Assembly (NCBI GenBank): GCA_963746845.1
Contig: CAVVCZ010000004.1
Location: 1,280,001-1,344,000 of the forward strand
Length of the DNA stretch: 64,000 nt
Direction: 5' to 3'
Source of the DNA: an uncultured Chloroflexia bacterium
Lineage (GTDB): Bacteria; Chloroflexota; Limnocylindria; Limnocylindrales; CSP1-4
Both the position numbers and the translations under genes were made by a program. Under the pieces are notes generated by a model. That model saw only the letters and a list, made by a program, of their open reading frames with translations, made no database searches and was not told the origin of the DNA. This document shows, one piece after another, positions 7,196 to 58,911 of this stretch (positions are counted from its first letter, which is position 1; every line of letters starts with the position of its first letter).

Positions 7196-7594
7196 TCAGG
7201 CGTGCTCCTCGTCGGCGTCGGCCTCGGCCTTCGTGCGGTGGATCGTGCCGGGCGCGTGCTGCGGCGGCGCGTACACCGTGTAGAGCTTGAGATCGACCGT
7301 CCCGGCGTTGACGATATTGTGGCGCGTCCCGGCGGGCACATGGACGAGGCGGCCGGCGGACACCTGGCCATGCTCGCCCTCGAGCGTGGCGATCCCTTCG
7401 CCTTCGACGAAGACGAGGACCTGGTCGACGTCGGTGTGGACCTCCTCGCCGATCTCGCCGCCCGGCGGGATGCTCATCACGACGACCTGGGCGTGCGGCC
7501 CGGTCGAGACGACCTCACGGAAGAATCGGTTGCGCTTCGCCCGCGCGACGATGTCGTCGACGTAGGGCTCGAAGGCCTTCTGGATCAGCGTCAT
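7196..7594 (-). CDS. Cupin domain protein
   Basis: QVVVMSIPPGGEIGEEVH..DQ, VPAGTRHNIVN, LYTVYAPPQH. Confidence 0.9.
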   Translation of the reverse strand: MTLIQKAFEPYVDDIVARAKRNRFFREVVSTGPHAQVVVMSIPPGGEIGEEVHTDVDQVLVFVEGEGIATLEGEHGQVSAGRLVHVPAGTRHNIVNAGTVDLKLYTVYAPPQHAPGTIHRTKAEADADEEHA

Positions 7595-7687
7595 GGCGTT
7601 CCCCTTTCGCCACGACGCTGCACCGGCTCGCGGCGTCCGGCAAGGGCCATTCGCCACGAATCCAGGCGGTCCGGACACGCCCGATGC

Positions 7688-7773
7688 TGGCGGAGAGGGT
7701 GGGATTCGAACCCACGAACCTTTCGGTCTCCGGTTTTCAAGACCGGTGCAATCGGCCGCTCTGCCACCTCTCC
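7688..7773 (-). tRNA. tRNA-Ser (UGA)
   Basis: GGAGAGG acceptor, anticodon arm CCGGT-CT-TGA-AA-ACCGG, long variable arm, GGTTCGAATCC T-loop, encoded CCA. Confidence 0.97.
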
Positions 7774-7810
7774 GCGCGTCATCCTACGGCGCGTCCCGGC
7801 GCCGCGCCGC

Positions 7811-8602: not shown

Positions 8603-8613
8603 GGCTCGGACTC

Positions 8614-40434: not shown

Positions 40435-41700
40435 TTACGGGTACAGGCCGCGCATCGCAGTCGCGTCGGCGACGCGCTGGACGGCGAGCAGGTAGGCGGC
40501 GGTCCGCATGTCGACCTGCTCGCGCCGGGCGATGGCCAGGGTCTCCTGGAACGCCTTGACCATGATCTCGCGCAGCTTGTCGTTGACGACGCGCTCGCTC
40601 CAGTGGTCGCGGTTGAGGTCCTGGACCCACTCGAAGTAGCTGACGGTCACGCCGCCGGCGTTGCACAGGATGTCCGGGATCATGAACTTGCTGTTCGCGA
40701 AGAGGATCCGGTCGGCGTCCGGCGTCGTCGGGCCGTTCGCGGCCTCGGCGATCAGGCGGGCCTTGATGTTGCCCGCGTTCCGGCTCGTGATCTGGTTCTC
40801 CAGCGCGGCCGGGATCAGGATCTCGCAGTCGACCTCCAGGAGCTCGGCGTTCGTGATGTCGGTCGTGCCCGGGAAGCCCTGGACGGTGCCGTGCTCCTTC
40901 TTCCAGGCGATGACCCGCTTGATGTCGAGCCCGCCCGGGTTGTGGATGCCGCCGGTCGAGTCGGACACGGCGACGACGGTTGCGCCCTCGTCCGAGATCA
41001 GGGTCGCCGCAATCGAGCCGGCGTTGCCGAAGCCCTCGATCGCGACCCGGGACTTCGACAGCTCGAGCCCGAGATGGCGGGCCGCCTCGATGATGCAGAA
41101 CACGGTGCCGCGGGCGGTCGCCTCGGTGCGACCCTCCGAACCGCCGAGGCTGATCGGCTTGCCGGTGACGACACCCGGGACCGTATGGCCCGCGTGCATC
41201 GAGTAGGTGTCCATGAACCAGGCCATGACCTGGGCGTTCGTGTTGACGTCCGGCGCGGGGATGTCCCGCTCGGGGCCGACGAGGACCTCGATCTCGGTGA
41301 AGAAGCGGCGGCTGAGCGCCTCGAGCTCCTTCTGGCTGAGCTTCTTCGGGTCGACGATCACGCCGCCCTTGCCGCCGCCGTACGGGATGCCGACGACCGC
41401 GCACTTCCAGGTCATCCACATCGCGAGGGCCTTGACCTCGTCGAGGCTGACGTCCTGGTGGTACCGGATGCCGCCCTTCGCCGGCCCGCGGCCGAGGTTG
41501 TGCTGGACGCGGTAGCCGGTGAACACCTGGACCGAGCCGTCGTCCATCTTCACCGGGAAGTGGACGGTCAGCTCCCGGCGCGGCTCGCGCAGGACGCGGC
41601 GCAGACCGGGATCGAGGTTGAGGCGCTCGGCGGCCAGGTCGAACTGTTGCTGGGCGACCTGCCACGGGTTGATCGACGCGGCGACTTGCTCGGTCGTCAT
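40435..41700 (-). CDS. gdhA: Glutamate dehydrogenase (Glu/Leu/Phe/Val dehydrogenase family)
   Basis: GPAKGGIRY, GGGKGG, DIPAPD, GFGNAG, EAANGP, NAGGVTVSYFEW. Confidence 0.93.
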   Translation of the reverse strand: MTTEQVAASINPWQVAQQQFDLAAERLNLDPGLRRVLREPRRELTVHFPVKMDDGSVQVFTGYRVQHNLGRGPAKGGIRYHQDVSLDEVKALAMWMTWKCAVVGIPYGGGKGGVIVDPKKLSQKELEALSRRFFTEIEVLVGPERDIPAPDVNTNAQVMAWFMDTYSMHAGHTVPGVVTGKPISLGGSEGRTEATARGTVFCIIEAARHLGLELSKSRVAIEGFGNAGSIAATLISDEGATVVAVSDSTGGIHNPGGLDIKRVIAWKKEHGTVQGFPGTTDITNAELLEVDCEILIPAALENQITSRNAGNIKARLIAEAANGPTTPDADRILFANSKFMIPDILCNAGGVTVSYFEWVQDLNRDHWSERVVNDKLREIMVKAFQETLAIARREQVDMRTAAYLLAVQRVADATAMRGLYP

Positions 41701-41970
41701 GGTGTGAGGTGATCCTCCGTGGCCGCCGGGGCCTGGTGGCCGACCGGAGGCGAGAGCTGGGTCGTCTCCCGGACGACCCCACGGGGCACCGTGCGCGTGG
41801 AGGGCGATCGGTGCGTCATGAGTCCGCGGTGAGTATACCGGCGAGCGGCCCTGGAGGTCGTGCGTCGTCCACCGTGACGCAACGTTAGCGAAACCCGGCC
41901 GCAACCTTCGCTGGTACAAGAGTCCCGGCCGCGGTCGGGGTGGTCGCCGGCGCGACGACGAGCCGAGGCG

Positions 41971-42816
41971 TCAGCGCTGGTAGAGCACCGCCGCGCCGAC
42001 GCAGCCCGGGCCGAGGTGCGGGCCGACCGACGGACCGACGATCGAGACGAGGACGTCGTCCGGGTCGAGGTTGCCGCGGCGGGCGACCTCGGCCTTGAAC
42101 TCCGCGACGTCGGGGGCCATCGTGTGGAGGATCGAGACGCGCTCGATCGGCCGGGCGCAGATCAGCTCGATGCAGCGCTCGCGCGACTTCGAGCGGGTTC
42201 GCGGCTTGTCGGCCGTCTCGACCGTGCCGTGCTCGACCGCGATGATCGGCTTGACCGAGAGCAGCGTCCCGATCGCGGCCTGGGCGCCGCTGATCCGCCC
42301 GCCCTTCTTCAGGTACTCGAGCGTCTCGAGCGAGACGTACATCCGAAGGTCGTCGGCCCGGTCGCGGAGGACGTCGGCGATCTCGGCCGCCGGCATCCCG
42401 CCCGCGGCGAGGTCCTGGCCCATGAAGCACAGGATCCCCTCGGCCATCGATGCGCCCTGCGAGTCGACGATGTGGATCTCCCGGTCCGGCAGCATCCCCC
42501 GGGCGATCTCGGCGGCCTTGATCGAGCCGGACAGCAATCCGGAGACATGGACCGAGATGATCGCGTCGGCGCCTTCGGCGAACGCGCCCTCGTAGATCGC
42601 CTTGACCTCCCCGGGGCTCGCCGCCGCGGTCTTCGGGAACGGTGCGTCGGGCGCCGTCATCCGCGTCCAGAAGTCCGCGGTCGAGAGATCGACGCCGGCG
42701 CGGTACTTGTCGGCGCCGAATGTCACCTCGAGCGGCACGACGCGAATGCCCGCCCCCTGGGCGACCGCCGGGTCGAGGTCCGACGCGGAATCGGTGACGA
42801 ACGCGATCCGGGCCAC
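41971..42816 (-). CDS. DegV family fatty acid-binding protein
   Basis: FVTDSASDL, SGLLSGS, IVDS, YLKKGGRIS, VKPI, HLGPG. Confidence 0.93.
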   Translation of the reverse strand: MARIAFVTDSASDLDPAVAQGAGIRVVPLEVTFGADKYRAGVDLSTADFWTRMTAPDAPFPKTAAASPGEVKAIYEGAFAEGADAIISVHVSGLLSGSIKAAEIARGMLPDREIHIVDSQGASMAEGILCFMGQDLAAGGMPAAEIADVLRDRADDLRMYVSLETLEYLKKGGRISGAQAAIGTLLSVKPIIAVEHGTVETADKPRTRSKSRERCIELICARPIERVSILHTMAPDVAEFKAEVARRGNLDPDDVLVSIVGPSVGPHLGPGCVGAAVLYQR

Positions 42817-42933
42817 GGCTCCCTCCTCTGAGCTTCCCCTCGCCACGATGATACGGGACCACAACCGGGCTCCGGACCGGTCGGCGACCCGCGTCTGGTC
42901 CGCCGACGTCCAAGGCGGTTACGCTGGCGGGAC

Positions 42934-44259
42934 ATGGATCGTTCTCTGTGGGCCGTGCTCGTCGGCACGTTCACGCTGCGTTTCAGCACGGGCCTCACGG
43001 GCACGATGCTGGCCGTCTATCTCGCGAAGCTGCCCGAGCATGGCGGCCCCGTGGTCGCGGCGACGACGCTGGCCGTCCTCCACGCGACGTTCTATCTCAG
43101 CGAGCTCGGCCTCTCGCCGATCTTCGGCGTCCTGTCGGACCGGATCGGCCACCATCGGGTGATGCTCATCGGCCCCGCGTTCGGAGCGGTCGCGGTGATC
43201 CTGACCGGTCTCACCACGAACCTGCTCCTGCTCGGCGGAACCCGGATCCTGGAGGGCGCGTCGACCGCCGCGAGCGTCCCCTCCATCCTCGGCTACATCG
43301 CGCTCGTGACCGCCGGCAACGAGGTTCTCCGGGGCAAGGCCGCCGCGCGGTTCGAGGGGGCGACGCTCGCCGGACTCGGCGTCGGGCTGGTCATCGCGCC
43401 GCTCCTGTTCGCGGCGCTCGGTCCCGCCGCGTTCTTCCTGAACGCGCTGGTCTACGGGGTCTCCTACCTGATCTACCGATACGGCGTCGAGGACCGCCAG
43501 GGCGTCGAGCGCGCAGAGCGCGCCGCGCGGGCGGACCGTCCGCGCATGGACCTCGGCCGATACGCGGCGCTGCTCCGCACGTCCCACGTCTGGCTCCTGG
43601 CGCCGACCTGGATCGCGGTCAACGCGGCGATCGGCGTGTGGTTCAGCCAGGCCATCTTCAACTTCTCCCGCGCCAATCCCCGCTTTCCGGACCAGCTCCT
43701 GATGCGCGGCTTCCAGCCGTTCCAGATCTCCCTGGCGGCGATCGCGATCGGCGTCGTGTTCTTCGCCGGCCTGATCTACTGGGGCAACCGCTTCAAGACC
43801 CTCCGCCGAACGACGATCATCGCGGGCGGGATCGCCGGCGGGATCGTCATGGCGATCGGCGTCTACGTCGTGAACCATGGCCACGCGCTGCCGCTCGTCC
43901 TGACGCTCGCGGGAGGCGTTGCCGCAGCGGCCGGCCTGTTCGTCCTCGCCGGTGCGACGCCGGCCGCGGTCGGTCTCCTCGCCGACATGTCGGAACGCTT
44001 CCCGACCGACCGCGGAGCGATCATGGGCCTCTACTCGGTGTTCCTCGCGATCGGCCAGATCGTGGGCAGCCTGATCGGCGGCTACGCGGCCGAGTCGCAC
44101 GGGATCGATGGGTTGCTCGCCGCCACGATCGTTCTGCTGATCATCGCGCTGCTCCCGACCGCGCAGCTGCGCCGCCAGGAGTACCTGCTCGAGGAAGAGC
44201 ACCCGGAGCTCGCTCCCACGTCCGCCGCCCACGAGGCGCCGCCCGCAGCACCCGCATGA
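42934..44259 (+). CDS. MFS transporter
   Basis: 12 TM pattern, motif A GVLSDRIGHHR. Confidence 0.9.
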   Translation: MDRSLWAVLVGTFTLRFSTGLTGTMLAVYLAKLPEHGGPVVAATTLAVLHATFYLSELGLSPIFGVLSDRIGHHRVMLIGPAFGAVAVILTGLTTNLLLLGGTRILEGASTAASVPSILGYIALVTAGNEVLRGKAAARFEGATLAGLGVGLVIAPLLFAALGPAAFFLNALVYGVSYLIYRYGVEDRQGVERAERAARADRPRMDLGRYAALLRTSHVWLLAPTWIAVNAAIGVWFSQAIFNFSRANPRFPDQLLMRGFQPFQISLAAIAIGVVFFAGLIYWGNRFKTLRRTTIIAGGIAGGIVMAIGVYVVNHGHALPLVLTLAGGVAAAAGLFVLAGATPAAVGLLADMSERFPTDRGAIMGLYSVFLAIGQIVGSLIGGYAAESHGIDGLLAATIVLLIIALLPTAQLRRQEYLLEEEHPELAPTSAAHEAPPAAPA

Positions 44260-44269
44260 GGGCGACAGC

Positions 44270-45961
44270 GTGAGTGCGGCGGCTCGTCCCGGCGACGGCG
44301 GCCGGCCGCTGGTCCCGATGCCCCTGGTTCGGGGCGCTCGCGGCGCGGTCGTCGCGCCCCACCACCTCGCCACGGCCGCCGGGCTGTCGATCCTCCGGGC
44401 CGGGGGTCACGCGGTCGACGCGGCCATCGCGACGAACGCGGTCCTCGGGGTCGTCCTGCCGTCCGCGTGCGGGATCGGCGGCGACGCGTTCTGGCTGATC
44501 TGGGACGAGGCGACGGGTCGCCAGACCGCGCTGAACGGCTCCGGACGAGCGCCGGCGACGGCCGATGCCGCCTCGTTGCGGGCCGGCGGGCTGGCCGTGC
44601 TCCCGTACCGGGGGCCGCTCGCGGTCACGGTGCCCGGCGCCGTTCGATCGTGGGGCGACGCGCATGCCCGACACGGCCGGCTGTCGAGGGCGGACGTCCT
44701 CGCCCCGGCGATCCAGCTCGCGCGCGACGGCTTCCCCGCCTACGACGGGTTCATCTCGGCCGTCGAGGGCACGCTGCCGGCGATCCTCGACGAGCTTGGC
44801 GCGGGCTCCGGGTTCGAGCGCGTCTACCGGCCGAACGGCAGGCCCTGGCGACCCGGCGAGCGCGTCCGCCTGCCGGCCCTGGCGACGACGCTCGAACGCC
44901 TCGCCGACGCCGGCTTCGACGACTTCTACGACGGTGAGATCGCCGAGCGGCAGGCCGCCGGGCTCGCGTCGGTCGGGTGCGGGATCACGGCCGGCGACCT
45001 GGCGACGCACACCTCGACCTGGACGGACCCGATCGCGACCACCTACCGCGGCACGCGGGTCACGACGCACCCGCCGAACAGCTCCGGCCTGGTCGCACTC
45101 GAGCTCCTCAACATCCTCGAGACGTTCGAGCCGCCGGCGGCCGGTGCGTTCGGGCCGGTCGGAGTCGAGGACGCGCGCTGGGTCCATCTCGGGATCGAGG
45201 CGGCGAAGCTCGCGATGGCCGACCGCGACTTCCACCTGTCGGACCCGGAGTTCGTCGACATCCCGCTCGACCAGCTGCTGTCCAAGGGGCATGCGGCCGA
45301 GCTGGCCCGCCTCATCGATCCGCACCGCGCGGCGATGCCGCCCGCCGCGACGAACCCACGCGGCGGTGGGACGATCTATCTCGCGACCGTCGACGCCGAC
45401 GGGAACGCGGTGAGCCTGATCGAGTCGAACTACATGGGGTTCGGGTCGGGCGTGGTGGACCCCGGCACCGGCATCCATTACCAGAACCGCGGGTCGTACT
45501 TCAGCCTCGATCCGGACCACCCGAACGTGCTCGCGCCGGGCAAGCGGACGCTCCACACGCTGCTCCCCGGGATGCTGTTCCGGCACGGCGAACGGCGGCC
45601 GTGGGTCGTGACCGGCTCGATGGGCGGTGACGCCCAGCCGCAGATCCATGCCCAGGTCGTGTCGGCGCTCGTCGACGGCGGCGTGGACGTCGCGACGGCG
45701 GTGGGCGCGCCGCGCTGGTTCGTCGACGGGGAGGCCCACTTCGCGCCACCGGTCAACGTCCGGGTCGAGCGACGCTACCCGGCGGTGATCCTGGACGAGC
45801 TGGAGGCCCTGGGCCACCCACTCACGCGGACGATCCCGTTCAACGGGCTGCTCGGCCACGCCCACGCGATCGAGCTGGTCGATGGCGGGCCGGCGGAGGC
45901 GGACGGCTCGCTGACGGCCGCGACGGATCCCCGGAGCGCGGGCCTGCCGGCGGTCTGGTAG
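44270..45961 (+). CDS. ggt: Gamma-glutamyltransferase family (Ntn hydrolase)
   Basis: GGHAVDAAIA, GIGGDAF, VTVPG, HPPNSSG, GGT cleavage site, QNRG, GKRTLHTL, MGGDAQPQ, DPRS. Confidence 0.9.
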   Translation: MSAAARPGDGGRPLVPMPLVRGARGAVVAPHHLATAAGLSILRAGGHAVDAAIATNAVLGVVLPSACGIGGDAFWLIWDEATGRQTALNGSGRAPATADAASLRAGGLAVLPYRGPLAVTVPGAVRSWGDAHARHGRLSRADVLAPAIQLARDGFPAYDGFISAVEGTLPAILDELGAGSGFERVYRPNGRPWRPGERVRLPALATTLERLADAGFDDFYDGEIAERQAAGLASVGCGITAGDLATHTSTWTDPIATTYRGTRVTTHPPNSSGLVALELLNILETFEPPAAGAFGPVGVEDARWVHLGIEAAKLAMADRDFHLSDPEFVDIPLDQLLSKGHAAELARLIDPHRAAMPPAATNPRGGGTIYLATVDADGNAVSLIESNYMGFGSGVVDPGTGIHYQNRGSYFSLDPDHPNVLAPGKRTLHTLLPGMLFRHGERRPWVVTGSMGGDAQPQIHAQVVSALVDGGVDVATAVGAPRWFVDGEAHFAPPVNVRVERRYPAVILDELEALGHPLTRTIPFNGLLGHAHAIELVDGGPAEADGSLTAATDPRSAGLPAVW

Positions 45962-46357
45962 CCACGCCCGACCTGCCCCGTTCGGCCCCGTCACCCCCGC
46001 CCAGCCCGCGGCCCCCGGCCCCCGGCCCCCGCCGCGCGCGTTGCGCCCAGCGCACGAAACGACGCCCGAACGGCCGGACTGTCGCCCGAAACGGCCAATT
46101 CCGCCCACTCTGACGTCGGATGGTGCGTCCAGTGCGTCAATCGGCGCTCGAGCGAGCCGTCAGCCGTCGTTTGACGCGCCCAGCGCAATGCCGGCGCCGG
46201 GCCCGAACGCCCGTGAGCGAGGAGCGGAGTGGCCAACGCAGTCCAGCGTCGTTCCAGTGCGACAGCATTGGAGTTATGCTCGGCCCCACCGGTGGCGGGC
46301 TGCGCTCACACGACGCCGCCACCGGTGAACCCACCGATCGGTTGACGGAGCCGCCGC

Positions 46358-46630
46358 GTGACCTCGAACGTCGGGCAGAACTACCCCTACACGAGCGAGA
46401 CCGAGGCCGATCGCGCCGCCGCGATCGCGAGCCTCACGGCCAGGCGCGAGGGTCTGTCCGACACCCTGGAGGCCGAGACGACGCCCGTCGACGTCAACGA
46501 GCAGTGGTGGGTCTGGAAGTGCCCGACCGCGGGCTGCCCCGGCCTCCTCCACGTCGCGGGCTACGCGCTGGACAAGCACGCCCTGTTCGTCGTCTGCGAC
46601 GGGACCTGCGGCAAGACGTTCCTCCGCTGA
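46358..46630 (+). CDS. Small zinc-ribbon protein
   Basis: WKCPTAGCPG...VVCDGTCGK; GGAG RBS; coupled to azlC. Confidence 0.75.
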   Translation: MTSNVGQNYPYTSETEADRAAAIASLTARREGLSDTLEAETTPVDVNEQWWVWKCPTAGCPGLLHVAGYALDKHALFVVCDGTCGKTFLR

Positions 46631-47388
46631 CGGCCCGCGCCCCCGGCACCGCTCCCCTGCCCGCGGACGAGCTCCGCGTCGCGCGGCGCCGGCTCGTCCT
46701 CGACGGGATGGGCATCCTCGTCTCCGCCGCCGGCTTCGGCTTCGTCTTCGGCCTGACGGCCCGGACGGTCGGCCACTACTCCCCGATCGAGGCGATGGCG
46801 ATGAGCCTCATCGCGTTCGCCGGTGCCGCCCAGTTCGCGACGATCGGCTATGTCGTCGCGGGCATCTCCTGGCCCGTGATCGCCCTCCTGACGTTCCTCC
46901 TGAACGCGCGTCACGCCCTGTACTCGGCCGCCATCGCGCCATGGTTCGTGGGCACTCCGTTCGGGCAGCGCGCCGTCGCCGCCCATCTCCTGACCGACGA
47001 GGCGTTCGCCCTCTCGACGACCCACTTCCGCCGGATCGGCCGGTTCGACCCATTCGGCTACTGGTTCGCCGCGATCGTCACGACCCTGATCCCCTGGAAC
47101 ATCGCCACGCTCGCGGGCGTGACGATCGGCGCCTCGATCGTGAACCCCTCGTCGCTCGGGATCGACGTCATCTTCCCGGCGGCGATGGCCGGCCTCGCCG
47201 TCGGGCTGATCACCGGCCGGCGCGAGCTCGCCGCGGCACTGGCCGGCGCCGCGATCGGGGTCGGCGTGACGCTGGCCGTGAGCGCGACCGCCGGGGTCAT
47301 CGCGGGCGGCGTCATCGGGCCGTTCGTCGGCTTCCTCATCCCGTCGTCCGAGGCGACCGAGCCCCCGGCGATCGGTGTCGACATTTGA
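46627..47388 (+). CDS. azlC: AzlC-family branched-chain amino acid exporter
   Basis: FAGAAQF, LLNARHALYS, LTDEAFA; start either CTG 46627 (overlapping upstream stop) or ATG 46708. Confidence 0.88.
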   Translation: MTARAPGTAPLPADELRVARRRLVLDGMGILVSAAGFGFVFGLTARTVGHYSPIEAMAMSLIAFAGAAQFATIGYVVAGISWPVIALLTFLLNARHALYSAAIAPWFVGTPFGQRAVAAHLLTDEAFALSTTHFRRIGRFDPFGYWFAAIVTTLIPWNIATLAGVTIGASIVNPSSLGIDVIFPAAMAGLAVGLITGRRELAAALAGAAIGVGVTLAVSATAGVIAGGVIGPFVGFLIPSSEATEPPAIGVDI

Positions 47389-47729: not shown

Positions 47730-48137
47730 TCAGCTGCGACGGACGGCGTCCGCCTCGACCTCGACGAGGAGCGAGGGGTCGATCAGCGCGCCGACCTCGA
47801 GGAGCGTGGATGCCGGCCGGATGCCGCCGAAGACCTCCCCGTGGACCGCGGCGACCGCGAGACCGTCCGTCATCGAGACGACGTACATCCGCGTCCGCAC
47901 GACGTCCGCGAGGCCGAAGCCCGCCTCCTCCAGCGCGCGCGCCACGATCGCCCACGAGGCGCGGGCCTGGGCGGCCGCGTCCCCGGGATGCGCGGACGTC
48001 CCGTCGGCACCGGTGTCGGTGGTGCCGGCGACCCAGCAGCGATCGCCCTCGACGATCGCCCGGCTGTAGCCGAACCGCTCCTCGTACGGGCCGCCGGACG
48101 AGATCCGTCGGCGCGCGGCGGGGTCGGCCGCCGTCAC
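47730..48137 (-). CDS. RidA/YjgF family protein
   Basis: SSGGPYEERFGYSRA, VAGTT, DVVRTRMY, RPASTL, LVEVEADA. Confidence 0.92.
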   Translation of the reverse strand: MTAADPAARRRISSGGPYEERFGYSRAIVEGDRCWVAGTTDTGADGTSAHPGDAAAQARASWAIVARALEEAGFGLADVVRTRMYVVSMTDGLAVAAVHGEVFGGIRPASTLLEVGALIDPSLLVEVEADAVRRS

Positions 48138-49396
48138 GACACCGGCGCCGGGCCGGCGTCCCGCCATGCCGCAGCCTCGGGATCGCGCCCGATCGCGAGG
48201 ATCAGCGCGGCCACGAGCGCGGTCCGCGGCACGATCGAGGCGACCTCCAGGTATTCCGCGGGCGAGTGGTCCATCCCGCCGATCGGTCCCAGACCGTCCA
48301 GCGTCGCGACGCCCATCCCGGACGTCGTGTTCGCATCGGACGCCCCGCCCGTGGCCGCGGCCCCGACCGTGAACCCGAGCCGTTCGGCGAGGGCCTGCAC
48401 GTGGTCGACGAGCCGGCCGGATCGATCGAGCTTCTCCATCGGCCACCAGCGGGCCATCTCGGTGACCTCGGCGCGAGTGTCGGGCACCGCGAGGGTCGCG
48501 AGCATCGCCCGGATCTCGGCCTCGGCCGTCTCGAGATCGGCTCGCCGGACGGCCCGCAGGTCGACCTCCAGAGAGCACCGCTCCGCGACGACGTTCGGCC
48601 GGGTCCCGCCCTGGATCACCCCGACATTGACCGTGACCCCGTCCCAGCGCCCGTTGAGGGCGTGCAGCCGGGTCACCAGGTCGGCCGCGGCGAGCACCGC
48701 GGAGCGGCCCTTCTCGGGCTCGACGCCCGCATGCGCGGCCCGCCCAGACACGGTGATCCGCGCGTCGACGATCCCCTTGCGCGACGAGACGATGTCGCCG
48801 TTCGCGCGGGCGCACTCGAGGACGAGACAGGCGTCGCTCTCCGCGGCGATCTCGCGGATGTGGGGCGTCGAGGTGATCGAGCCGATCTCCTCGTCCGGGT
48901 TCGCGACGAACGTCACCCGTTCGAACGGCAGCGGACCGCGCGCGACGAGGGTCTTCAGGGCATAGAGGCCGGCCAGCAACCCGGACTTCATGTCCGTGAC
49001 CCCGGGCCCGCGCGCGATGCCATCGGCGTCGATCGAGAACGGCCGCTCAGCGGCGGTCCCCGGGTCGAACACCGTGTCCATGTGCCCGATGAGGAGGAGC
49101 CGTGGACCACCCGTCGCCCCGTGCCCGGTCTCGGCATCCCACGTTCCGATGACCGTGGCAGCGAACCGGCCAGCCGGGTCCGGTCGCCGTTCGACGCGAG
49201 CGCCGACCCCCGCGAGGAAGTCGGCGACGAACGCGCCGATCCGGTCCACGCCCTCGGGCGTGTACGAGCCACAGTCGGTGTTCACCAGGCGCTCGAGATC
49301 GGCGAGGTACGCGGGCTCGCCGGCACGGGCCGCCGCCTCGATCTCGGCCAGCTCGTCGGCGGCGACGCCCGCACCCGGGGTCGTCAGGGTGTCCAT
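48134..49396 (-). CDS. M20 metallopeptidase (glutamate carboxypeptidase G2-like)
   Basis: GHMDTVF, GPGVTDMKSG, DEEIGS, AAHAG, GGASDAN, DGLGPIG, HS. Confidence 0.9.
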   Translation of the reverse strand: MDTLTTPGAGVAADELAEIEAAARAGEPAYLADLERLVNTDCGSYTPEGVDRIGAFVADFLAGVGARVERRPDPAGRFAATVIGTWDAETGHGATGGPRLLLIGHMDTVFDPGTAAERPFSIDADGIARGPGVTDMKSGLLAGLYALKTLVARGPLPFERVTFVANPDEEIGSITSTPHIREIAAESDACLVLECARANGDIVSSRKGIVDARITVSGRAAHAGVEPEKGRSAVLAAADLVTRLHALNGRWDGVTVNVGVIQGGTRPNVVAERCSLEVDLRAVRRADLETAEAEIRAMLATLAVPDTRAEVTEMARWWPMEKLDRSGRLVDHVQALAERLGFTVGAAATGGASDANTTSGMGVATLDGLGPIGGMDHSPAEYLEVASIVPRTALVAALILAIGRDPEAAAWRDAGPAPVS

Positions 49397-49473
49397 GGGC
49401 CGAAGTCTAGGTGCGCCGCGGTGTCTCACGTGCCGTCACCGGCACCACAGGCCCGGACTATGCTGCCCGGACC

Positions 49474-51282
49474 GTGCGCGTGATCGAGACTCGCCTGCTC
49501 GAGGGACCGAACGTCTACCGGCTCGAGCCGGTGGTGAAGATCGAGGTTGCGGTCGGTCGCCGTCGGACGTGGTACGGCCAGCGGAGCCCCGGCCGCCACG
49601 CGCTCGTCCACCTCGGCGCGGACGTCGCGCCGCGCGACTGGCCGCTTCCCGTCGACGGGTTGGTCGGCTGGATCCGGCGGCTCCGCGTGGACCACGGCGA
49701 GGGCCGGGGTGGAGTGGCCGTCCACCGCTCATCGGACCCCGGGCACTGGATCGTCACGTTCCCCTGGACCGGCGCCGAGCGGGCCCAGACGATCGCGGAC
49801 GCGGCCGTCGGGCTGGCAGAGCGCGACGTCTCGCCCGTCCGACGTGCACACCTGACCGGCTCCCAGGAACGCCAGGTCGCCCGCTGGTCCGAGCGGATCG
49901 CCGAGTCGCGGGCCACGCCGCCTGCATGGGTCCGGGACGCCGATCGGCGGATCCCGGTCGTCTCGATCACCGGGACGAACGGCAAGAGCACCGTGACCCG
50001 GCTCGTCACCCACATCCTCAAGGTCGCGGGACGGCGGGTCGGGACGACGACGTCGGACGGGGTGCTCGTCGACGAGCGGCTGGTCGAGCCGGGCGACTGG
50101 ACCGGGCCGGGCGGCGCGTGGCAGATCCTCGAGCGATCCGACGTCGACGTCGGCGTGCTGGAGACCGCCCGGGGTGGGCTGGTCCTGCGCGGGATGGGCT
50201 ACGAATCGAACGACGCGAGCGTGATCACCAACGTCACGTCCGACCATCTCGACCTGCAGGGGATCCACACGCTGCCAGAGCTGGCCGAGGTCAAATCCAC
50301 GGTCGCCCGCGCGACCCGTCCCGAGGGCTGGGTCGTCCTGAACGCCGACGACCCGCTCGTCGCGGCGGTCGCGCGGCGGGTCCGGGCCCACATCGCGATG
50401 TTCTCGCTCGGTTCGGGCCGGGGCCTCGCGACCGTCCGGCGGACCGCCGCGAACGGCGGCCGAGGCTACGTCCTCCGCGACGGCTGGCTCGTCGAGATCG
50501 ACGGGAGCCATGGCGGTGCGCACGACGGCCATGGCAGCCACGGTGGTCACGACGACGACCCGGTCGAGCACCGGATCATCGAGGTCGACCGTGTGCCGAT
50601 CACCCTCGGCGGGCTGGCCCGCCACAACGTCGCGAACGCCCTCGCCGCAGCCGGGGCCGCGCGCGGACTCGGGGTGACGCTCGCCCAGCTCCGGGACGGC
50701 CTCGCGGACTTCCAGCCGTCGTCCGAGCGCTCGCCGGGTCGCCTGAACCTGTTCCGGCTGGGCGCGCGGATCGTGATCGTCGACTTCGCCCACAACGAGG
50801 CCGGGGTCAACGCGGTCCTCGACGTGGCCGAGGGGATCGCCGGCGGGGCCGCCGGCCGGACGGCGCCGGTGACGGCGATCGTGGGCACGGCCGGCGATCG
50901 CCCGGACGACACGCTCCGGGGGATCGGGCGGATCGCCGGACAACGCGCCCAGCGGGTCGCCATCAAGGAAACCCTGAAGTACCTTCGCGGCCGGAGCCGC
51001 GAGTCGGTGGTCGGCGAGATCCTGGCGGGGATCGCGTCCGCGAAGCGGTCGACCGCCGACGTGACGGTCTACGAGTCGGAGACCGCGGCACTCCGCGGGG
51101 AGCTGGCAAGGAGCGACGGAGCGAGCAAGCCCGAGGCGCCCCGCGTGATCGTCCTGATGTGCCACGAGGAGCGCGAAGAGGTGTTCGCGCTGCTGACGGA
51201 GCTCGGCGCCCGCCCGGTCGACGTCGGCAGCGAGCTGACGACCCTCGTCCCGCGGCTCCAGACGCGGCCGCGCCGCGCCTGA
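49474..51282 (+). CDS. CphA-derived Mur-ligase protein lacking the ATP-grasp domain
   Basis: N-terminus VIETRLLEGPNVY matches CphA IIETRILRGPNYW; then ITGTNGKST, ETARGG, TNVTSDHL, LNADD, HNVANALAA, PGRLN, DFAHN, AGDR; no KPLDGNHG or other ATP-grasp motif. Confidence 0.85.
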   Translation: MRVIETRLLEGPNVYRLEPVVKIEVAVGRRRTWYGQRSPGRHALVHLGADVAPRDWPLPVDGLVGWIRRLRVDHGEGRGGVAVHRSSDPGHWIVTFPWTGAERAQTIADAAVGLAERDVSPVRRAHLTGSQERQVARWSERIAESRATPPAWVRDADRRIPVVSITGTNGKSTVTRLVTHILKVAGRRVGTTTSDGVLVDERLVEPGDWTGPGGAWQILERSDVDVGVLETARGGLVLRGMGYESNDASVITNVTSDHLDLQGIHTLPELAEVKSTVARATRPEGWVVLNADDPLVAAVARRVRAHIAMFSLGSGRGLATVRRTAANGGRGYVLRDGWLVEIDGSHGGAHDGHGSHGGHDDDPVEHRIIEVDRVPITLGGLARHNVANALAAAGAARGLGVTLAQLRDGLADFQPSSERSPGRLNLFRLGARIVIVDFAHNEAGVNAVLDVAEGIAGGAAGRTAPVTAIVGTAGDRPDDTLRGIGRIAGQRAQRVAIKETLKYLRGRSRESVVGEILAGIASAKRSTADVTVYESETAALRGELARSDGASKPEAPRVIVLMCHEEREEVFALLTELGARPVDVGSELTTLVPRLQTRPRRA

Positions 51283-52418: not shown

Positions 52419-55322
52419 TCAGCCCTCCGGGACCTCGAGCTCGCCCGGATCGGCGAAGGCGGTCGTCCCCCGCGCCGAGCCGGACGCGGCCATCGCCTCG
52501 CGGTAGACCGCGACCGCGTCGTCGACGCAGCACACGATCAGGTCGCCGGGCGCCGCGCGCCGGAGGGCCGTGCGAACCGCGGCGAGCTCCTCGAGGATCT
52601 TCTCTGCCTTCAGCGCCCGCGCGCCACCGGCCCGGGCGCTGCGCACGCCGTCGACGACGTTGCCAGCGGACTCGCCCGGCGCTCGCCCCCGGAGGTTCTT
52701 GTCCTCGCGGACGATGATCTCGTCGAACGCCTTCGCGGCGATCGCCCCGTATTCGCGCTGGTCGTCGTCGCGCCGGTCGCCCGGGATCCCGATCACGCCG
52801 ATCGCCCGGCCGCCGCGCGCATGGCCGTTCGAACGGGGCCCGATCCGGCCCGCCTTCGACTGCGGCTCGGTCATCATCCGCTCGACGAAGTCCGCGAGCT
52901 GGCGCATCCCGTCGACGTTGTGGCAGTAGTCGATGACGACCCGGATGCCGCCGACGTCGAGCAGGTTCAGCCGGCCCGGCGCCTGGAAGAACGACGTCGA
53001 GAACGTCCGCAGCCCCTGCCGGATGTCGTGGAGATGGGCGCCGGCCGCCCACGCCGCCGCCGCGGCGGCGAGCGCGTTCGCGACGTTCATCCGCGCCCGT
53101 CCACCGAAGGTCGCCGGGATCAGGTGGGTGTACAGGACCGGCATCGTCCGCGGCCCGTGGCGGAGGACGATCAGCTCGCCCTCGGGTCCTGGCTGGAGGA
53201 CGAACGCGGCGTTGCCCCGCGACGTGTGGCCGTCGACCCGGTCGTAACCGTCCTCGCCCTTGTCGGTCGCCATGCTGAACAGCACGACCCGGCCGGCGCA
53301 ATGGCGGCCCATCCGGTAGACGTGGCCGTCGTCGGCATTCAGCACGGCCGTGCCGGACCGCGGCACCGCCTCGACGATCACGCCCTTGACGTTCGCGAGC
53401 TGGCCGATCGTGTCGATCCCGCCGAGCCCGAGGTGGTCGCCGGTGATGTTCGTGACGACCGCGACGTCGTTCCGGTCGTAGCCGAGGCCCTCGCGCAGGA
53501 TCCCGCCGCGGGCCACCTCGAACACCGCCGTGTCGACGGTCGGGTTCTGGAGGACCATCTGGGCCGACTTCGGGCCCGACATGTCGCCCTTCTTGATCAG
53601 CCGGCCGTCGATGACGATGCCGTCGGTCGAGGTCATCCCGACCCGCTTGCCCTTGAGCTTCAGGATGTGGGCGATCATCCGGACGGTCGTCGTCTTCCCG
53701 TTCGTGCCGGTGACCGCGATGATCGGGATCCGGGCGGGGCTGCCGGGCGGGAACAGGCCGTCGATGACCGGCCGGGCGACGTACTGCGGCTCGCCCTCGG
53801 TCGGGTGGGTGTGCATCCGGAACCCGGGCGCGGCGTTGACCTCGACGATCGCGCCGCCGGTCTCCCGGACGGGCGTCGCGATGTCCGGGCAGATGAAGTC
53901 GATCCCGGCAATGTCCAGGCCGACGATCTGGGCGGCGGTCTCGGCGATCTCCACGTTGTCGGGGTGGGCCTCGATCGTCCGGTCGATGGACGTGCCGCCG
54001 GTCGACATGTTGCCGGTGAGCGCGAGCTTGACGAATACCCCCGCCGGCGGGACGTCGTCCAGCCCGAACCCCTGGTCGCGGACGAGCCCCTCGGCCGCCT
54101 CGTCGACCTTGATCCGGGTCAGGACCTTCTCGTGGCCGATGCCGCGGCGCGGATCGGCGTTCGCGACGTTGACGAGCTGGCGAACGGTGTGCTCGCCGTC
54201 GCCGGTGACGCTCGCCGGGACGCGCTCGGCGATGGCGGCGACCTTGCCCCCGATCACGAGGCAGCGATAGTCGTTGCCCGCGACGTAGCTCTCGACGACG
54301 AGGTCGCCGCTGCGGCTCTCCCTCGACGCCCCGTGGTAGGCGGCGCGGACGGCCTCCTCGGAGCGAAGGTCGAGATGCACGCCGCGGCCATGGTTGCCGT
54401 CGAGCGGCTTGACGACGCACGGGAAGCCGATCCGGAGCGCGGCCTCGACGGTCGCCTCCTCGGTGTCGACGACGGCGCTCTTCGGGACGGGCAGCCCGGC
54501 CGAGTCGAGCAGGCGGTTCGTCAGGCTCTTGTCGCTCGCGATGTCGACGGCGATCCCCGACGTCATCGAGGTCATCGTCGCCCGGATCCGCTGCTGGTGG
54601 ACGCCCTGGCCGAGCTGGACCAGCGAATGGCGATCGAGGCGGATCCATGGGATGTCGCGGGACGCCGCCTCGTCGAGGATCGCCTGTGTCGACGGTCCGA
54701 AGGCCGCCCGCTCCGCGAGACGGATCAACCGCTCGAGCTCCGCCATGAAGTCGATCGCGACGCGGTCGTCGTCGGGCGCCACGAGGTGGTTGACGAGCGC
54801 CACGGCGATCTTGCCGGCCTCGATCCCGACCATCTCCTCGCGGAACTCGTAGATCACGTTGTACCGGCCGTATTCGCCGGTCGTCCGCGTCTTGCCGTGG
54901 CGGACGTCCGTGCCGGCGAGGTTCTGCAGCTCGAGGGCGATGTGCTCGGCGATGTGGCCGGCCCAGGTGCCCTCGCGGAGTCGCGTGATGAACCCACCCC
55001 GCCGGCCGAGGCTGCAGGCGTGGTCCTCGAGGCTCGGCAGGAGGTTGACGAGCGCCTCGGTGAAACCCGGGATCTTGTTGCTCGGGAACTCCTCGAGGAC
55101 CCCGAGGTCGACGACCATCCGGACGACCGGCTCGCGGGCCCAATAGTTCGGGCCGCGGAGGATCCGGGTCTCGATGATCCGGAGGGTCGGCTCCGGGCGG
55201 CTGCCGTTGCGCTGACCGTCCGCCGCGCGGCGGCGCGGCGTCGGCGGGCTCTTCGTCTTCGAAGCGCCCGCTGCGCTGGTTGCCGTCTTCTTCTCGCGCG
55301 GCTGAGGAGCGGTCCGGGCCAC
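52419..55322 (-). CDS. cphA: Cyanophycin synthetase (CphA1)
   Basis: RGPNYW, C-x19-H-x2-EH, FGPST, KPLDGNHGRG, NMSTGG, EVNAAPGFRMH, VTGTNGKTT, EVARGG, PGRLN, DYCHN, PGDRRD. Confidence 0.96.
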   Translation of the reverse strand: MARTAPQPREKKTATSAAGASKTKSPPTPRRRAADGQRNGSRPEPTLRIIETRILRGPNYWAREPVVRMVVDLGVLEEFPSNKIPGFTEALVNLLPSLEDHACSLGRRGGFITRLREGTWAGHIAEHIALELQNLAGTDVRHGKTRTTGEYGRYNVIYEFREEMVGIEAGKIAVALVNHLVAPDDDRVAIDFMAELERLIRLAERAAFGPSTQAILDEAASRDIPWIRLDRHSLVQLGQGVHQQRIRATMTSMTSGIAVDIASDKSLTNRLLDSAGLPVPKSAVVDTEEATVEAALRIGFPCVVKPLDGNHGRGVHLDLRSEEAVRAAYHGASRESRSGDLVVESYVAGNDYRCLVIGGKVAAIAERVPASVTGDGEHTVRQLVNVANADPRRGIGHEKVLTRIKVDEAAEGLVRDQGFGLDDVPPAGVFVKLALTGNMSTGGTSIDRTIEAHPDNVEIAETAAQIVGLDIAGIDFICPDIATPVRETGGAIVEVNAAPGFRMHTHPTEGEPQYVARPVIDGLFPPGSPARIPIIAVTGTNGKTTTVRMIAHILKLKGKRVGMTSTDGIVIDGRLIKKGDMSGPKSAQMVLQNPTVDTAVFEVARGGILREGLGYDRNDVAVVTNITGDHLGLGGIDTIGQLANVKGVIVEAVPRSGTAVLNADDGHVYRMGRHCAGRVVLFSMATDKGEDGYDRVDGHTSRGNAAFVLQPGPEGELIVLRHGPRTMPVLYTHLIPATFGGRARMNVANALAAAAAAWAAGAHLHDIRQGLRTFSTSFFQAPGRLNLLDVGGIRVVIDYCHNVDGMRQLADFVERMMTEPQSKAGRIGPRSNGHARGGRAIGVIGIPGDRRDDDQREYGAIAAKAFDEIIVREDKNLRGRAPGESAGNVVDGVRSARAGGARALKAEKILEELAAVRTALRRAAPGDLIVCCVDDAVAVYREAMAASGSARGTTAFADPGELEVPEG

Positions 55323-55381: not shown

Positions 55382-56218
55382 CTACTCGGACGCGGCTTCG
55401 CCGCCGGAGATCGCGTGGAGCGTCGGGGTCGCCAGGCGGCGTCGGTGGCGCAGGTCGAACCGGTAGCCCGACGGCAGCGAGTGCAGGACCACGTTGCTGA
55501 TCATCAGCGGCTTGTGGCCGCGGACCTCCCAGGCGTCGGTCTCGGACTCGGCCCCGTCGACGACCGTGATGCTTCCCCGCCCGATCACCTCCATGACGCC
55601 GTCCGGGCCGACGACCCCGGCCGTGTCCTCGTCGACGCCCAGCCCGAGGAGCGACGGGTTCTGGGCGATGAGGCTGAGCAGCCGCCCGAGTCGGTTCCGC
55701 TGCTGGAAATGCTGGTCGACGATCACGCCCGGGAGCATCCCGAGACCCGCGGCGATCTGGGCCATCCGGTGCTTCGGCGTCGCGCCGGACGCCCCGAACG
55801 CGATCATGTGGCTGCTCATCGCGGACGCGCCGGCACTCGTCCCCGCCATCACGGCGCCGTGCCGGAACCGGTCGAGCATCGCGTCGGCCAGCCGCGTCCC
55901 GCCGACCTGCGACGCGAGCTTCAGCTGGTTGCCGCCGGTCAGGAACACCCCGGTCGCGTCCCGCAGCGCGAGCGCGACGGACTCGTCGTTCGCCTGGGGC
56001 CGCGTCGCGGCGTGGAGCGTCCGGACGGTCGTCACGCCGAGGTCCGTGAAGATGTGGCGGTAGCGCTCGCCCGCCTCGGTCCCGAGGCTGGACGCGGTCG
56101 AGATGACGACGATGGTCGCGTCGCGACCACCGGCCAGGGTCACGAACCGGTTCAGGATCACCCGGTCGCGGACCTTGTCCTCCGCCCCTCCGATGATGAT
56201 GACGGTCCCGTCGGTCAC
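55382..56218 (-). CDS. cphB: Cyanophycinase
   Basis: IIGGAEDK, FLTGGNQ, AGTSAGA, DQHFQQRNRLGRL, GVDEDT. Confidence 0.96.
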   Translation of the reverse strand: MTDGTVIIIGGAEDKVRDRVILNRFVTLAGGRDATIVVISTASSLGTEAGERYRHIFTDLGVTTVRTLHAATRPQANDESVALALRDATGVFLTGGNQLKLASQVGGTRLADAMLDRFRHGAVMAGTSAGASAMSSHMIAFGASGATPKHRMAQIAAGLGMLPGVIVDQHFQQRNRLGRLLSLIAQNPSLLGLGVDEDTAGVVGPDGVMEVIGRGSITVVDGAESETDAWEVRGHKPLMISNVVLHSLPSGYRFDLRHRRRLATPTLHAISGGEAASE

Positions 56219-57072: not shown

Positions 57073-58911
57073 TTGGCCTCCCGTCCCGGTGCTTCCGGCA
57101 CGTCCGGCACGTCCGGCGGACCGTCCCAACCCAACGACGCAGACTACGGCTACGACCGCGAGCACCTGCCGGACATGATCGCCTTGGCAGCGCGGCAGCG
57201 AGCAAAGGACGAGATCTTCGTCGACCTCCTTGCGCGGCAGCTGCGGCCGGGCCCCGTCCTCGAGATCGGCGCGGGGTGCGGACAGATCGCCGAGATGCTC
57301 GCGGAGCGTGGATGGTCGGTCGTCGCCTCCGACATCGAGCCCTTCTTCGTCGAGTACATGCGGTCGCGCGGTCTTGACGCCCGGGTGCTCGACGCCCTCG
57401 ACCTGCCCCCGCAGCCGGTCCCGCCGATGAATGTCGTCACGACAGGGCTGTCGCCGCTGATCCACCACGACGAGGAAGCGATCCATCGAGCCTACCGCTC
57501 GATCGCCCGGGTCCTCGCGCCGGGCGGACGGTTCGTCTTCATCCATCCCTCGCACATCGTTCACAACCCGTGGAGCCCGGCGAGCACGCACATCAGGGTG
57601 GCCGAGGTCGAGGGTCTGCGTCTCGTCCGGCGCTTCCGGAACCAGGCCCTGCCGTCCAGGGCGTATGCCCACTTGCCGCGTTCCCTGTCCGAGATGATCG
57701 AGGCCAGCCTGGGCCGCCTCGTGGGCGTCCGCTGGGTGCTCGTCTTCGAGCGACCCCAGCGACCGTCCGCCGGGAGATCGAGCGCCACGGGGATCGCCAT
57801 GAGGATTGAGTTCGTTCGGCGTGGTCCCGAGCATCTCGAGGCGATCCGCGCGTTCAACGGCCGCCTCGAGGCAGGCGGGGTCAAGGAACGATTCGGCATC
57901 GCGACCCTCCTTGCCGAGGAGCCGACGCGTTCGCGGGTCGCGGGATCGGGGATCGACTACGAGGCCTTCGTCGCGCTGGAGGGCGAGGCCGTCCGCGGCG
58001 GATATTCCATCAAGCACCAGCGGTTCTTGATCGGCGGCCGGGAGGTGTCGATCGGGTTCCTCGGGCACCCAATCTCCGAGGGCACGATCGATGGTCGCTA
58101 TGCCCTCGTGGGGCCGCGGCTGCTGAGGGACGCCCTGGCGCGGCAGCCGATGCTCTATGCCCTCGGGATCGGCGGACGCGACGTGGCCATCGCGCGTCTG
58201 CTGTCGCGGGCGGGGTTCGAGCTGCAGGAGGTCCCGTTCGCCTTCCGCGTCGAGAACGTTCGACCGTTCCTCCGCGAGATCTCCGTCCTCCGGACCAGTC
58301 GGTCCCGGCGCCTCGCTGCGCGAGCAGGTGCGACGACAGGGGCCGGCTGGATTGCGATTCAGGCCCTCCAGCATCGGCGCAAACGGCTCGTGCGTACGAC
58401 CGTGCGCAGCCGCGTCGTCGTGGAGTTGGCGCCGTGGGCGGACGCGATCTGGACGCAGTGCCGCGGCCGGTTCGCATTCGCCGCCGTCCGTGACGCTGCG
58501 GCGATCCGGGAGATGTACGACGCGTCAGATGATCCGTTCGTGCGGCTGGTGCTCGAAGCCGCCGGCAAGCCGGTCGGCTGGGTCGTGTGCCTGTCGAGGC
58601 AGTTCCGCGACCATCGGTACTTCGGCAACCTGAAGGTCGGATCGATCGTGGACTGCGTTGTCGTGGCCGGGTTCGAGACGGCCGTTCTGGGGGCCGCGAT
58701 TCGACAGTTGCGCGATGAGGACGTCGATCTCGTTGTCACCAACCAGTCCTTCGGGCCAATCCGCGCGGCGCTGCGTGCGACCGGCTTCCTTGACGGGCCG
58801 TCGAACTTCCTGTTCGGTCCGTCGCCACAGCTCGCGACCGCGATGGGAGCCGCCGGGCTGGACATGTTCCAGCTCACGCGAGGGGATGGTGAGGGGCCGG
58901 TCAATCTCTGA
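57073..58911 (+). CDS. Class I SAM methyltransferase in frame with a GNAT-like domain (fusion, or two genes; second ATG 57799)
   Basis: VLEIGAGCG, VVASD, VLAPGGRFVF; C-terminal half RGGYSIKHQ...ISEG...ALGIGG...LTRGDGEGP. Confidence 0.7.
   Translation: MASRPGASGTSGTSGGPSQPNDADYGYDREHLPDMIALAARQRAKDEIFVDLLARQLRPGPVLEIGAGCGQIAEMLAERGWSVVASDIEPFFVEYMRSRGLDARVLDALDLPPQPVPPMNVVTTGLSPLIHHDEEAIHRAYRSIARVLAPGGRFVFIHPSHIVHNPWSPASTHIRVAEVEGLRLVRRFRNQALPSRAYAHLPRSLSEMIEASLGRLVGVRWVLVFERPQRPSAGRSSATGIAMRIEFVRRGPEHLEAIRAFNGRLEAGGVKERFGIATLLAEEPTRSRVAGSGIDYEAFVALEGEAVRGGYSIKHQRFLIGGREVSIGFLGHPISEGTIDGRYALVGPRLLRDALARQPMLYALGIGGRDVAIARLLSRAGFELQEVPFAFRVENVRPFLREISVLRTSRSRRLAARAGATTGAGWIAIQALQHRRKRLVRTTVRSRVVVELAPWADAIWTQCRGRFAFAAVRDAAAIREMYDASDDPFVRLVLEAAGKPVGWVVCLSRQFRDHRYFGNLKVGSIVDCVVVAGFETAVLGAAIRQLRDEDVDLVVTNQSFGPIRAALRATGFLDGPSNFLFGPSPQLATAMGAAGLDMFQLTRGDGEGPVNL

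Follow-up and report, generated by a model that had tools for sequence, protein, structure and literature searches.

Genes of the locus

The 64,000-nucleotide stretch analyzed here (the window: contig CAVVCZ010000004.1, positions 1,280,001 to 1,344,000 of the forward strand, assembly GCA_963746845.1, from an uncultured Chloroflexia bacterium of the CSP1-4 lineage) carries the cyanophycin genes cphA1 and cphB and, convergent with them, a third gene whose product combines the N-terminal (N) domain and the Mur-ligase (M) domain of cyanophycin synthetase, CphA1, without its ATP-grasp (G) domain (Table 1). We refer to this product as the ligase. The cyanophycin operon, called intact in a first-pass annotation of the DNA, is so: CphA1 and CphB both score above the cut-offs of their models, and one hydrolase gene lies between the pair and the ligase gene. 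All three active-site motifs are present in the neighboring CphA1.

The ligase gene occupies an open frame of 623 codons on the plus strand (49411-51282) that closes with a TGA codon at 51280-51282. Homologs and the CphA N terminus support the GTG at 49474 as the translation start, which yields a protein of 602 residues with the N terminus MRVIETRLLEGPNVY; a sequence-identical database entry of 600 residues begins at the next GTG, at 49480. Residue numbers given here follow the 602-residue form. The third-position GC content of the gene, 0.92, is like that of its neighbors. The translation contains every Mur-ligase motif that had been picked out at first pass, namely GTNGKST (166-172), ETARGG (229-234), NVTSDHL (252-258), LNADD (288-292), PGRLN (420-424), DFAHN (436-440), and GDR (473-475).

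Table 1. Features of the ligase gene and its surroundings (window coordinates)
Feature	Coordinates	Strand	Evidence
Stand-alone N+M ligase gene	49474-51282	+	Translation, Pfam, NCBIfam, homologs, AlphaFold2 model
CphA-type N domain (residues 1-155), without the Cx19HxxEH zinc site	49474-49938	+	hhalign, superposition on CphA1
Mur-ligase middle domain, Mcore (residues ~165-396): P-loop GTNGKST, E229, D256-H257, K273, N289	49966-50661	+	Pfam PF08245; columns invariant also in CphA1
His/Gly/Asp-rich insertion loop of Mcore (residues ~343-364)	50500-50565	+	Translation, BLASTP gap, pLDDT
Mur-ligase C-terminal (lid) domain (residues ~422-541): R422-x-N424, D436-x-x-H439-N440, G473-D-R475, R504-G-R506; clade-specific E441, Y502	50737-51096	+	Pfam PF02875
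Divergent intergenic region of 77 bp between M20 and ligase genes; presumed shared promoter region	49397-49473	.	Sequence; divergent pairing kept in Chloroflexota loci
M20 metallopeptidase, divergent from ligase	48134-49396	-	Pfam M20 and M20_dimer; NCBIfam; synteny
Beta-lactamase-family serine hydrolase, approximate start	51340-~52400	-	Pfam PF00144, 160.5 bits
cphA1, complete N-G-M cyanophycin synthetase with Cx19HxxEH	52419-55322	-	TIGR02068, 1141.6 bits (cut-off 850); Pfam
cphB, cyanophycinase	55382-56218	-	TIGR02069, 268.2 bits (cut-off 126.6)
Glutamate dehydrogenase	40435-41970	-	
DegV	41971-42918	-	
MFS transporter	42934-44259	+	
Gamma-glutamyltransferase (GGT)	44270-45961	+	
AzlC	46120-47388	+	
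Methyltransferase-domain protein	57073-58911	+	

Domain organization

Pfam places the middle domain of the Mur ligases in the protein with 73.9 bits (Mur_ligase_M, PF08245; cut-off 24). The C-terminal domain (Mur_ligase_C, PF02875) reaches 27.0 bits with a cut-off of 28.4; homologs are mostly above this cut-off, and the fold is present in the structural model described below. At E ≤ 0.01, Pfam finds no ATP-grasp family, no PF18921, and no DUF4938 in the ligase, whereas the neighboring CphA contains PF18921, several ATP-grasp families, and both Mur families. The NCBIfam model for cyanophycin synthetase, TIGR02068, aligns with the ligase only over model positions 474-859 of 862 and gives 364.9 bits (cut-off 850), and the best of the NCBIfam MurE models reaches 105.3 bits (cut-off 373). 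In a BLASTP comparison with the neighboring CphA, identity is 36% across 433 residues of the M domain (E 6e-65) and 26% across 223 residues of the N-terminal region (E 7e-6).

Comparison of alignments by hhalign matched 16 N regions from the ligase family to 16 CphA1 N domains over 126 columns, with a probability of 95.8% and an E value of 6.9e-9. All 16 CphA1 N domains that were aligned contain the zinc site Cx19HxxEH, and none of the 16 from the short ligases does; in the latter no Cys or His is conserved at all. The absence of this site had been noted for the single protein, and it proves to be a property of all 16 family members aligned. According to PMC9262961, the motif occurs in 83% of CphA1, and in most CphA1 N domains it constitutes the endo-cyanophycinase site.

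An AlphaFold2 model of the ligase, computed from a 40-sequence alignment, has a predicted local distance difference test score (pLDDT) of 88.7 and a predicted TM score (pTM) of 0.90. Foldseek ranks CphA1 structures at the top for this model, with a TM score of 0.73 normalized to the query. Superposed with VIA-align, residues 1-580 of the model fit SuCphA1 (7lgq_A, residues 1-872) with a Z score of 36.2 and a root-mean-square deviation (rmsd) of 2.8 Å over 509 residues, and residues 1-416 fit TeCphA1 (7wae_C, a chain without the lid) with a Z score of 37.9 and an rmsd of 2.5 Å over 359 residues; the best MurE structure gives a Z score of 26.4. The superposition starts at residue 1 of the model on residue 1 of CphA1. 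Since N and M both superpose on CphA1, the two folds and their mutual arrangement are predicted to be kept, with the G domain simply absent. The P-loop of the M domain begins at residue 166, and the N domain (residues 1-155) is joined directly to M. The architecture of N plus M without an ATP-grasp domain, as first annotated, is thus borne out by Pfam, by NCBIfam, and by the superposed model.

Within Mcore, an insertion of about 20 residues, HGGAHDGHGSHGGHDDD, lies opposite a gap in the alignment with the neighboring CphA. Model confidence in this loop is low, with pLDDT below 50 at residues 353-358, and the loop may be metal-binding or disordered.

Ligation-site residues

Conservation in the M domain was compared between 36 rows of the ligase family and 37 rows of the CphA1 clade (31 CphA1 and six short proteins nested among them, described below). 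Invariant in both groups are G166, N168, and K170 of the P-loop, R175, D207, E229, R232, D256-H257, K273, N289, N387, R422, D436, H439-N440, G473-D474-R475, and R504; T167, without exception in the family, is 92% conserved in the CphA1 group. The ATP and Mg ligands reported for TeCphA1, K499, T500, T522, and E558 (PMC9427784), match K170, S171, S193, and E229 of the ligase by register.

The acyl-side residues of Mcore are largely as in CphA1, and a set of other positions differs between the two groups (Table 2). Mur ligases bind the incoming amino acid through their C-terminal domain, as with the DNPR motif of MurE. The changes in the lid hint at a different amine substrate for the ligase, and the amino acid that would be added may not be arginine, given that a number of the lid positions that CphA1 conserves are altered.

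Table 2. M-domain positions that differ between the ligase family and the CphA1 clade
Position	Ligase family (36 rows)	CphA1 clade (37 rows)
G213	G 36/36	S 34/37
L237	L 28/36	R 36/37
R238	R 32/36	Variable
T280	T 34/36	V 32/37
Column 300	I/V/T	D 31/37
Column 312	A/S 34/36	F 30/37
Column 320	K/T	D 22/37
Column 323 (Y502)	Y 36/36	Y 5/37
E441	E 34/36	P 25/37
Residue following GDR	T/P/G/S	R 31/37

Occurrence beside cphA1

Relatives of the ligase are found in Chloroflexota and Actinomycetota at 34-89% identity. A word-based search returned 7188 matches at E ≤ 0.001 among 8000 scored candidates; the best 120 of these are 80-100% identical, measure 584-634 residues, and carry the names "cyanophycin synthetase" (JGI) or "Mur ligase family protein" (NCBI). 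An exhaustive search of representatives gave 10402 matches at E ≤ 0.001 and 1117 at E ≤ 1e-30. Many of the best 150 representatives are 520-600 residues long and align over residues 1-580 of the query at 36-44% identity. When 50 representatives were scanned with Pfam, Mur_ligase_M was present in all 50, a canonical PF18921 N domain in four, and DUF4938 in one (P0221). Antricoccus and Microlunatus are among the named cluster members. Protein-atlas clusters are labeled Chloroflexota, Thermomicrobiota, and Actinomycetota, and the cultured carriers include Nocardioides alkalitolerans DSM 16699, N. lijunqiniae, Ornithinimicrobium cavernae, and Kribbella strains.

Within the genus, the ligase occurs in 21 of 24 genomes, each of which also has a CphA-type match; the three genomes without it are 60-77% complete, and the tally includes one unpublished genome (G010). 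In a sample of 300 other genomes of the phylum, carriers fall into three families (7 of 16 genomes in f1, 15 of 15 in f3, and 6 of 6 in f17), and two further families, f30 and f13, have CphA1 without the ligase. The ligase and cphA genes are adjacent on one contig in 25 of these 28 carriers and on separate small contigs in two; in the remaining one, G330, cphA is missing. Pfam annotation of 104 neighboring proteins from 11 loci defines a recurring block in which a divergent M20 peptidase gene is followed by the ligase gene and then by a convergent cphA1-cphB pair, often with overlapping 3' ends. Elsewhere, the ligase and cphA genes are directly convergent, or the spacer holds other genes.

A scan across species found the short ligase in 38 of 80 loci, labeled Chloroflexota (15), Actinomycetota (20), Methylomirabilota (1), Pseudomonadota (1), and unknown (1). 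The other 42 loci hold a full-length CphA1 only and belong to Bacteroidota (31), Cyanobacteriota (5), and other phyla (6). Downstream of the ligase gene, a match to the G domain of cphA lies on the opposite strand at a distance of 1.3-7.3 kb in 30 of the 38 loci; in two more (L053 and L055) cphA is present and cut by the end of the locus, which brings the loci with a convergent downstream cphA to 32 of 38. The remaining six have at most 2,972 nucleotides of downstream sequence. An M20 gene is the divergent neighbor in all 13 Chloroflexota-labeled loci that have upstream sequence and is found near the ligase in one of 20 Actinomycetota-labeled loci.

Homologs consisting of N and M alone thus exist and are linked to cphAB in the phylum sample, in the 11 annotated loci, and in the wider scan, and the concern that the gene might be a decaying one-off is answered by its intact frame and its conservation across two phyla. 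Judged from these relatives, the ligase gene is under selection and not a one-off deletion. Our literature search found no description of a CphA relative consisting of N and M only, although subscription reviews might mention one.

The genome in which cphA is missing, G330 (94% complete), belongs to the same family and shows what became of the ligase there. The order MFS-GGT-AzlC-M20-ligase is kept, and cphA is reduced to a remnant of 60 C-terminal residues. In the ligase gene the first 82 codons are gone and the reading frame shifts near codon 490; M20 also carries a frameshift. Decay of both the ligase and M20 where cphA has been lost is as predicted from a dependence on cphA. The decayed cluster, which corresponds to locus L109 (G330:C24:174000-190000), spans about 5700-8700 of that locus; GGT and AzlC are intact.

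Phylogeny

A tree of 91 M-domain rows with less than 70% identity (394 columns; IQ-TREE, LG+C20+F+G4) was rooted on the genome's own MurE, a single, long outgroup that stands at a distance from the ligase. The target family forms one clade of 36 rows (ultrafast bootstrap 96, Shimodaira-Hasegawa-like approximate likelihood ratio test (SH-aLRT) 93). The 31 CphA1 rows, together with six nested short proteins, form another (100/98), and a second clade of short ligases contains 17 rows (90/88). The branching order among these three has next to no support (52/0). In a quick tree, the CphA1 proteins that partner the ligases make up a subclade of their own (SH-aLRT 99). An approximately unbiased (AU) test rejected a topology in which the target family was forced together with these partner CphA1 proteins (log-likelihood difference 52.3, p-AU 0.0015), the group tested having been named after the tree had been seen. 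Given the separate clade and the AU result, the ligase belongs to an old lineage and did not arise by copying of the neighboring cphA.

The first-pass description of the ligase as CphA-derived has to be amended: the M domain is CphA-like, but descent from the neighboring cphA is rejected by the AU test, and the family falls outside all sampled CphA1 M domains. Its nearness to CphA1 over MurE, MurF, and FolC is upheld, with the family profile matching CphA1 at E 1e-132 and MurE at E 1e-34.

The second short clade begins with an RRLTGPN-type hairpin, and hhalign relates its N terminus to the CphA1 N domain with a probability of 87% and to that of the target family with 93%; thus all three lineages appear to share the N-M arrangement. 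With a single outgroup, one insertion of the G domain and two losses would both fit the tree. As three lineages bearing N-M meet in a trichotomy, N-M may be the ancestral scaffold that received an ATP-grasp insertion to give CphA1.

The six metagenomic proteins nested inside the CphA1 clade (P0239, P0248, P0269, P0224, P0227, and P0255) are about 580-645 residues long, and placing them on the tree takes five changes. Four of the six have a canonical PF18921 N domain above cut-off, and P0239 and P0248 keep Cx19HxxEH together with a stub of the G domain directly before M. From their sequences, they look like independent recent in-frame deletions of the G domain, with gene-call or assembly artifacts as another possible source.

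Surrounding genes

The M20 peptidase encoded divergently from the ligase is closest to the glutamate carboxypeptidase and ArgE-DapE type (NCBIfam PRK06133, 287 bits, below the cut-off of 349). The genome, which is 92% complete, contains no IadA above cut-off and no IaaA (PF01112) match, which makes M20 a candidate for either of two roles, the missing beta-Asp-Arg dipeptidase or a side-chain de-arginylase.

Upstream of M20 lie GGT and an AzlC/AzlD-type amino-acid exporter gene (44270-47388, plus strand). The GGT-AzlC order is kept in the f1 relatives L024 and L109 and is not kept in f3, f17, or Actinomycetota. The first-pass annotation had listed gamma-Glu-X units among possible products, for which we find no specific support; a gamma-glutamyl ligase would have only the nearby GGT and the glutamate-carboxypeptidase-like M20 to recommend it, and GGT is not conserved outside f1.

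The hydrolase encoded between the ligase and cphA has a weak AmpH or D-aminopeptidase-like match. The probable start of cphA1 is a GTG at 55322 behind GGAGG, with the N domain beginning at 55184; the intervening 46 codons (55185-55322, minus strand) encode a Lys/Arg/Pro/Ala-rich N-terminal extension that lies outside the CphA1 model.

Discussion

The ligase is most readily described in terms of CphA1 (N-G-M; TIGR02068; PDB 7LG5, 7LGQ, 7WAE, 7LGN, and 7LGM). The folds and arrangement of N and M are shared (Z 36-40), all ATP, Mg, and catalytic residues of the M site are kept, CphA1 is the best match of the ligase profile among solved structures (E 1e-132), and the gene adjoins a cphA1-cphB pair. 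In contrast to CphA1, the ligase has no G domain for backbone extension and no zinc peptidase site, several of its lid residues are changed, it scores 364.9 bits where the CphA1 model asks for 850, and it belongs to a separate clade. Like CphA2, it is a reduced relative of CphA1; CphA2 is described in PMC10273328 as having N, G, and a truncated, inactive M, with a single active site and a non-catalytic N domain. The reduction is the opposite one, however, in that CphA2 retains G beside an M that has lost its activity, and the ligase retains a full M and lacks G. CphA2 is also described as cyanobacterial (PMC9262961), whereas the ligase family is found in Chloroflexota and Actinomycetota.

Ligases of the Mur superfamily work by acyl-phosphate chemistry. 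With MurC, MurD, MurE, MurF, FolC, and the pseudomurein ligases, the protein described here shares Mur_ligase_M, the P-loop, and, by a match just under the cut-off, Mur_ligase_C, and its model superposes on MurE and MurD with Z scores of 23-26, but the profile match is far weaker than to CphA1 and a CphA-type N domain replaces the UDP-binding domain 1. The second short clade, which includes a protein with DUF4938 (PF16292), resembles the target family in its size of about 550-590 residues and in having an RRLTGPN-type beta-hairpin followed by a CphA-like M domain. It is nevertheless a separate clade, whose genes do not lie beside cphA in either of two loci (L026 and L027), and the target itself has no DUF4938 match. 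P0221 and P0213 are among the second-clade ligases. The neighbors are a glycosyltransferase, an enoyl reductase, and DinB in L027 (G319:C11) and an M23 peptidase and a DAO oxidoreductase in L026 (G161:C134).

From these comparisons we favor, with moderate confidence, the reading that the protein is an active, ATP-dependent ligase that acts in trans on the side chains of cyanophycin-type chains. It would be built from N and M (Mcore plus lid), the parts of CphA1 that jointly form the side-chain ligation site; in CphA1, the N domain helps hold the polymer at the M site. By analogy with that site, the ligase would phosphorylate a free carboxylate of the chain, most likely an aspartate beta-carboxylate, and would then join the alpha-amino group of an amino acid to it. 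Because there is no ATP-grasp domain, the ligase is not expected to extend a backbone and would act in trans, taking polymer or oligomer that the neighboring CphA1 has produced and completing, re-loading, or diversifying the side chains.

Several points weigh against this reading. The M domain of the neighboring CphA1 is intact, so a second side-chain ligase is not obviously needed; the notion that the CphA1 M domain is dead and has been replaced by the ligase is ruled out on the same ground, all M residues being intact. In CphA1, moreover, the only residue on which the M site acts is the chain's C-terminal Asp. Since cphA1 occurs without the ligase in f30, in f13, and in other phyla (42 of 80 loci), the ligase does not answer a general need of cyanophycin synthesis. 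Transfer of a single module between the two phyla is possible, in which case the linked loci are not independent. The second short clade, with 17 rows, was not beside cphA in the two loci at hand, and G330 is a metagenome-assembled genome, some of whose lesions could be assembly errors.

A bolder proposal, which we regard as doubtful, is that the ligase and M20 run a cycle of side-chain charging and discharging on a persistent poly-Asp, or that the ligase adds a residue other than Arg, with N-M as a possible ancestral scaffold for insertion of the ATP-grasp domain.

Rather unlikely, in our estimation, is the alternative that the ligase carries out the same chemistry on a different acceptor, extending or capping the polymer elsewhere: it might add a second residue to the alpha-carboxylate of the side-chain Arg, as Mur ligases act in succession, or form a loading and unloading pair with M20 on persistent poly-Asp. 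The replacement throughout the family of lid and active-site-rim positions conserved in CphA1 would suit a new acceptor, as would the Tyr at column 323 in 36 of 36 family rows and the divergent M20 neighbor in 13 of 13 Chloroflexota loci having upstream sequence. M20 peptidases of the CPG2, ArgE, and DapE type hydrolyze N-acyl amino acids with a free alpha-carboxylate, and the arginine branch has this same geometry. Within Mcore, however, the acyl-side residues are largely those of CphA1, and in 19 of 20 Actinomycetota-labeled loci no M20 lies near the ligase.

It is also conceivable, though improbable, that the ligase acts on a peptide or metabolite unrelated to cyanophycin and sits beside cphA only through shared regional ancestry. 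The second short clade, its DUF4938-type member included, does occur in unrelated contexts (two of two loci), and the partner CphA1 proteins of both phyla form a single clade (99), so that the linkage could be one inherited arrangement. Yet this arrangement is kept down to 34-39% identity, across spacers of 0.03-7 kb and changing neighbors; the ligase decays where cphA has been deleted, in G330; and the polymer-holding N domain is retained.

That the ligase is not a catalyst and instead partners CphA1 in a structural or regulatory role, in the manner of the inactive M domain of CphA2, seems to us very improbable. In CphA1 tetramers, Mcore contacts the Gcore modules of neighboring subunits (PMC9427784), so docking of an N-M protein onto CphA1 is conceivable in principle. 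The ATP, Mg, and catalytic residues of active CphA1 M domains are, however, invariant in the 36 family rows, and the M domain of the ligase is full length, whereas that of CphA2 is described as truncated and inactive (PMC10273328). A decaying, recent deletion derivative of the neighboring cphA, finally, is refuted by the open frame with its third-position GC of 0.92, by conservation in two phyla, and by a separate clade (96/93) outside CphA1 (100/98; AU p 0.0015), even though recent G-domain deletions seem to exist elsewhere, in the six short proteins within the CphA1 clade.

The cyanophycin enzymes of the current scheme, as set out in PMC10206079 and PMC9974463, are CphA1, CphA2, the cyanophycinases, and the dipeptidases IadA, IaaA, and CphZ. 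If the favored reading of an active trans-acting ligase is right, this conserved enzyme, which has only a side-chain ligation site and in two large soil phyla is tied to cphA, would bring in a step that the scheme lacks. Should a cycle with M20 or the addition of a non-Arg residue prove true, Chloroflexota and Actinomycetota would have cyanophycin of undescribed composition or dynamics. Loading of another amino acid, or re-loading of stripped chains, would change the view of nitrogen buffering in the carriers and would provide a tool for making cyanophycin variants, of relevance to industrial polymer development. The ligase family also bears on the origin of the three-domain CphA1, and cultured carriers in Nocardioides, Kribbella, and Ornithinimicrobium make the question directly testable. 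Overall, the sequence evidence points to the ligase family as an extra, unstudied step in the handling of this nitrogen-storage polymer.

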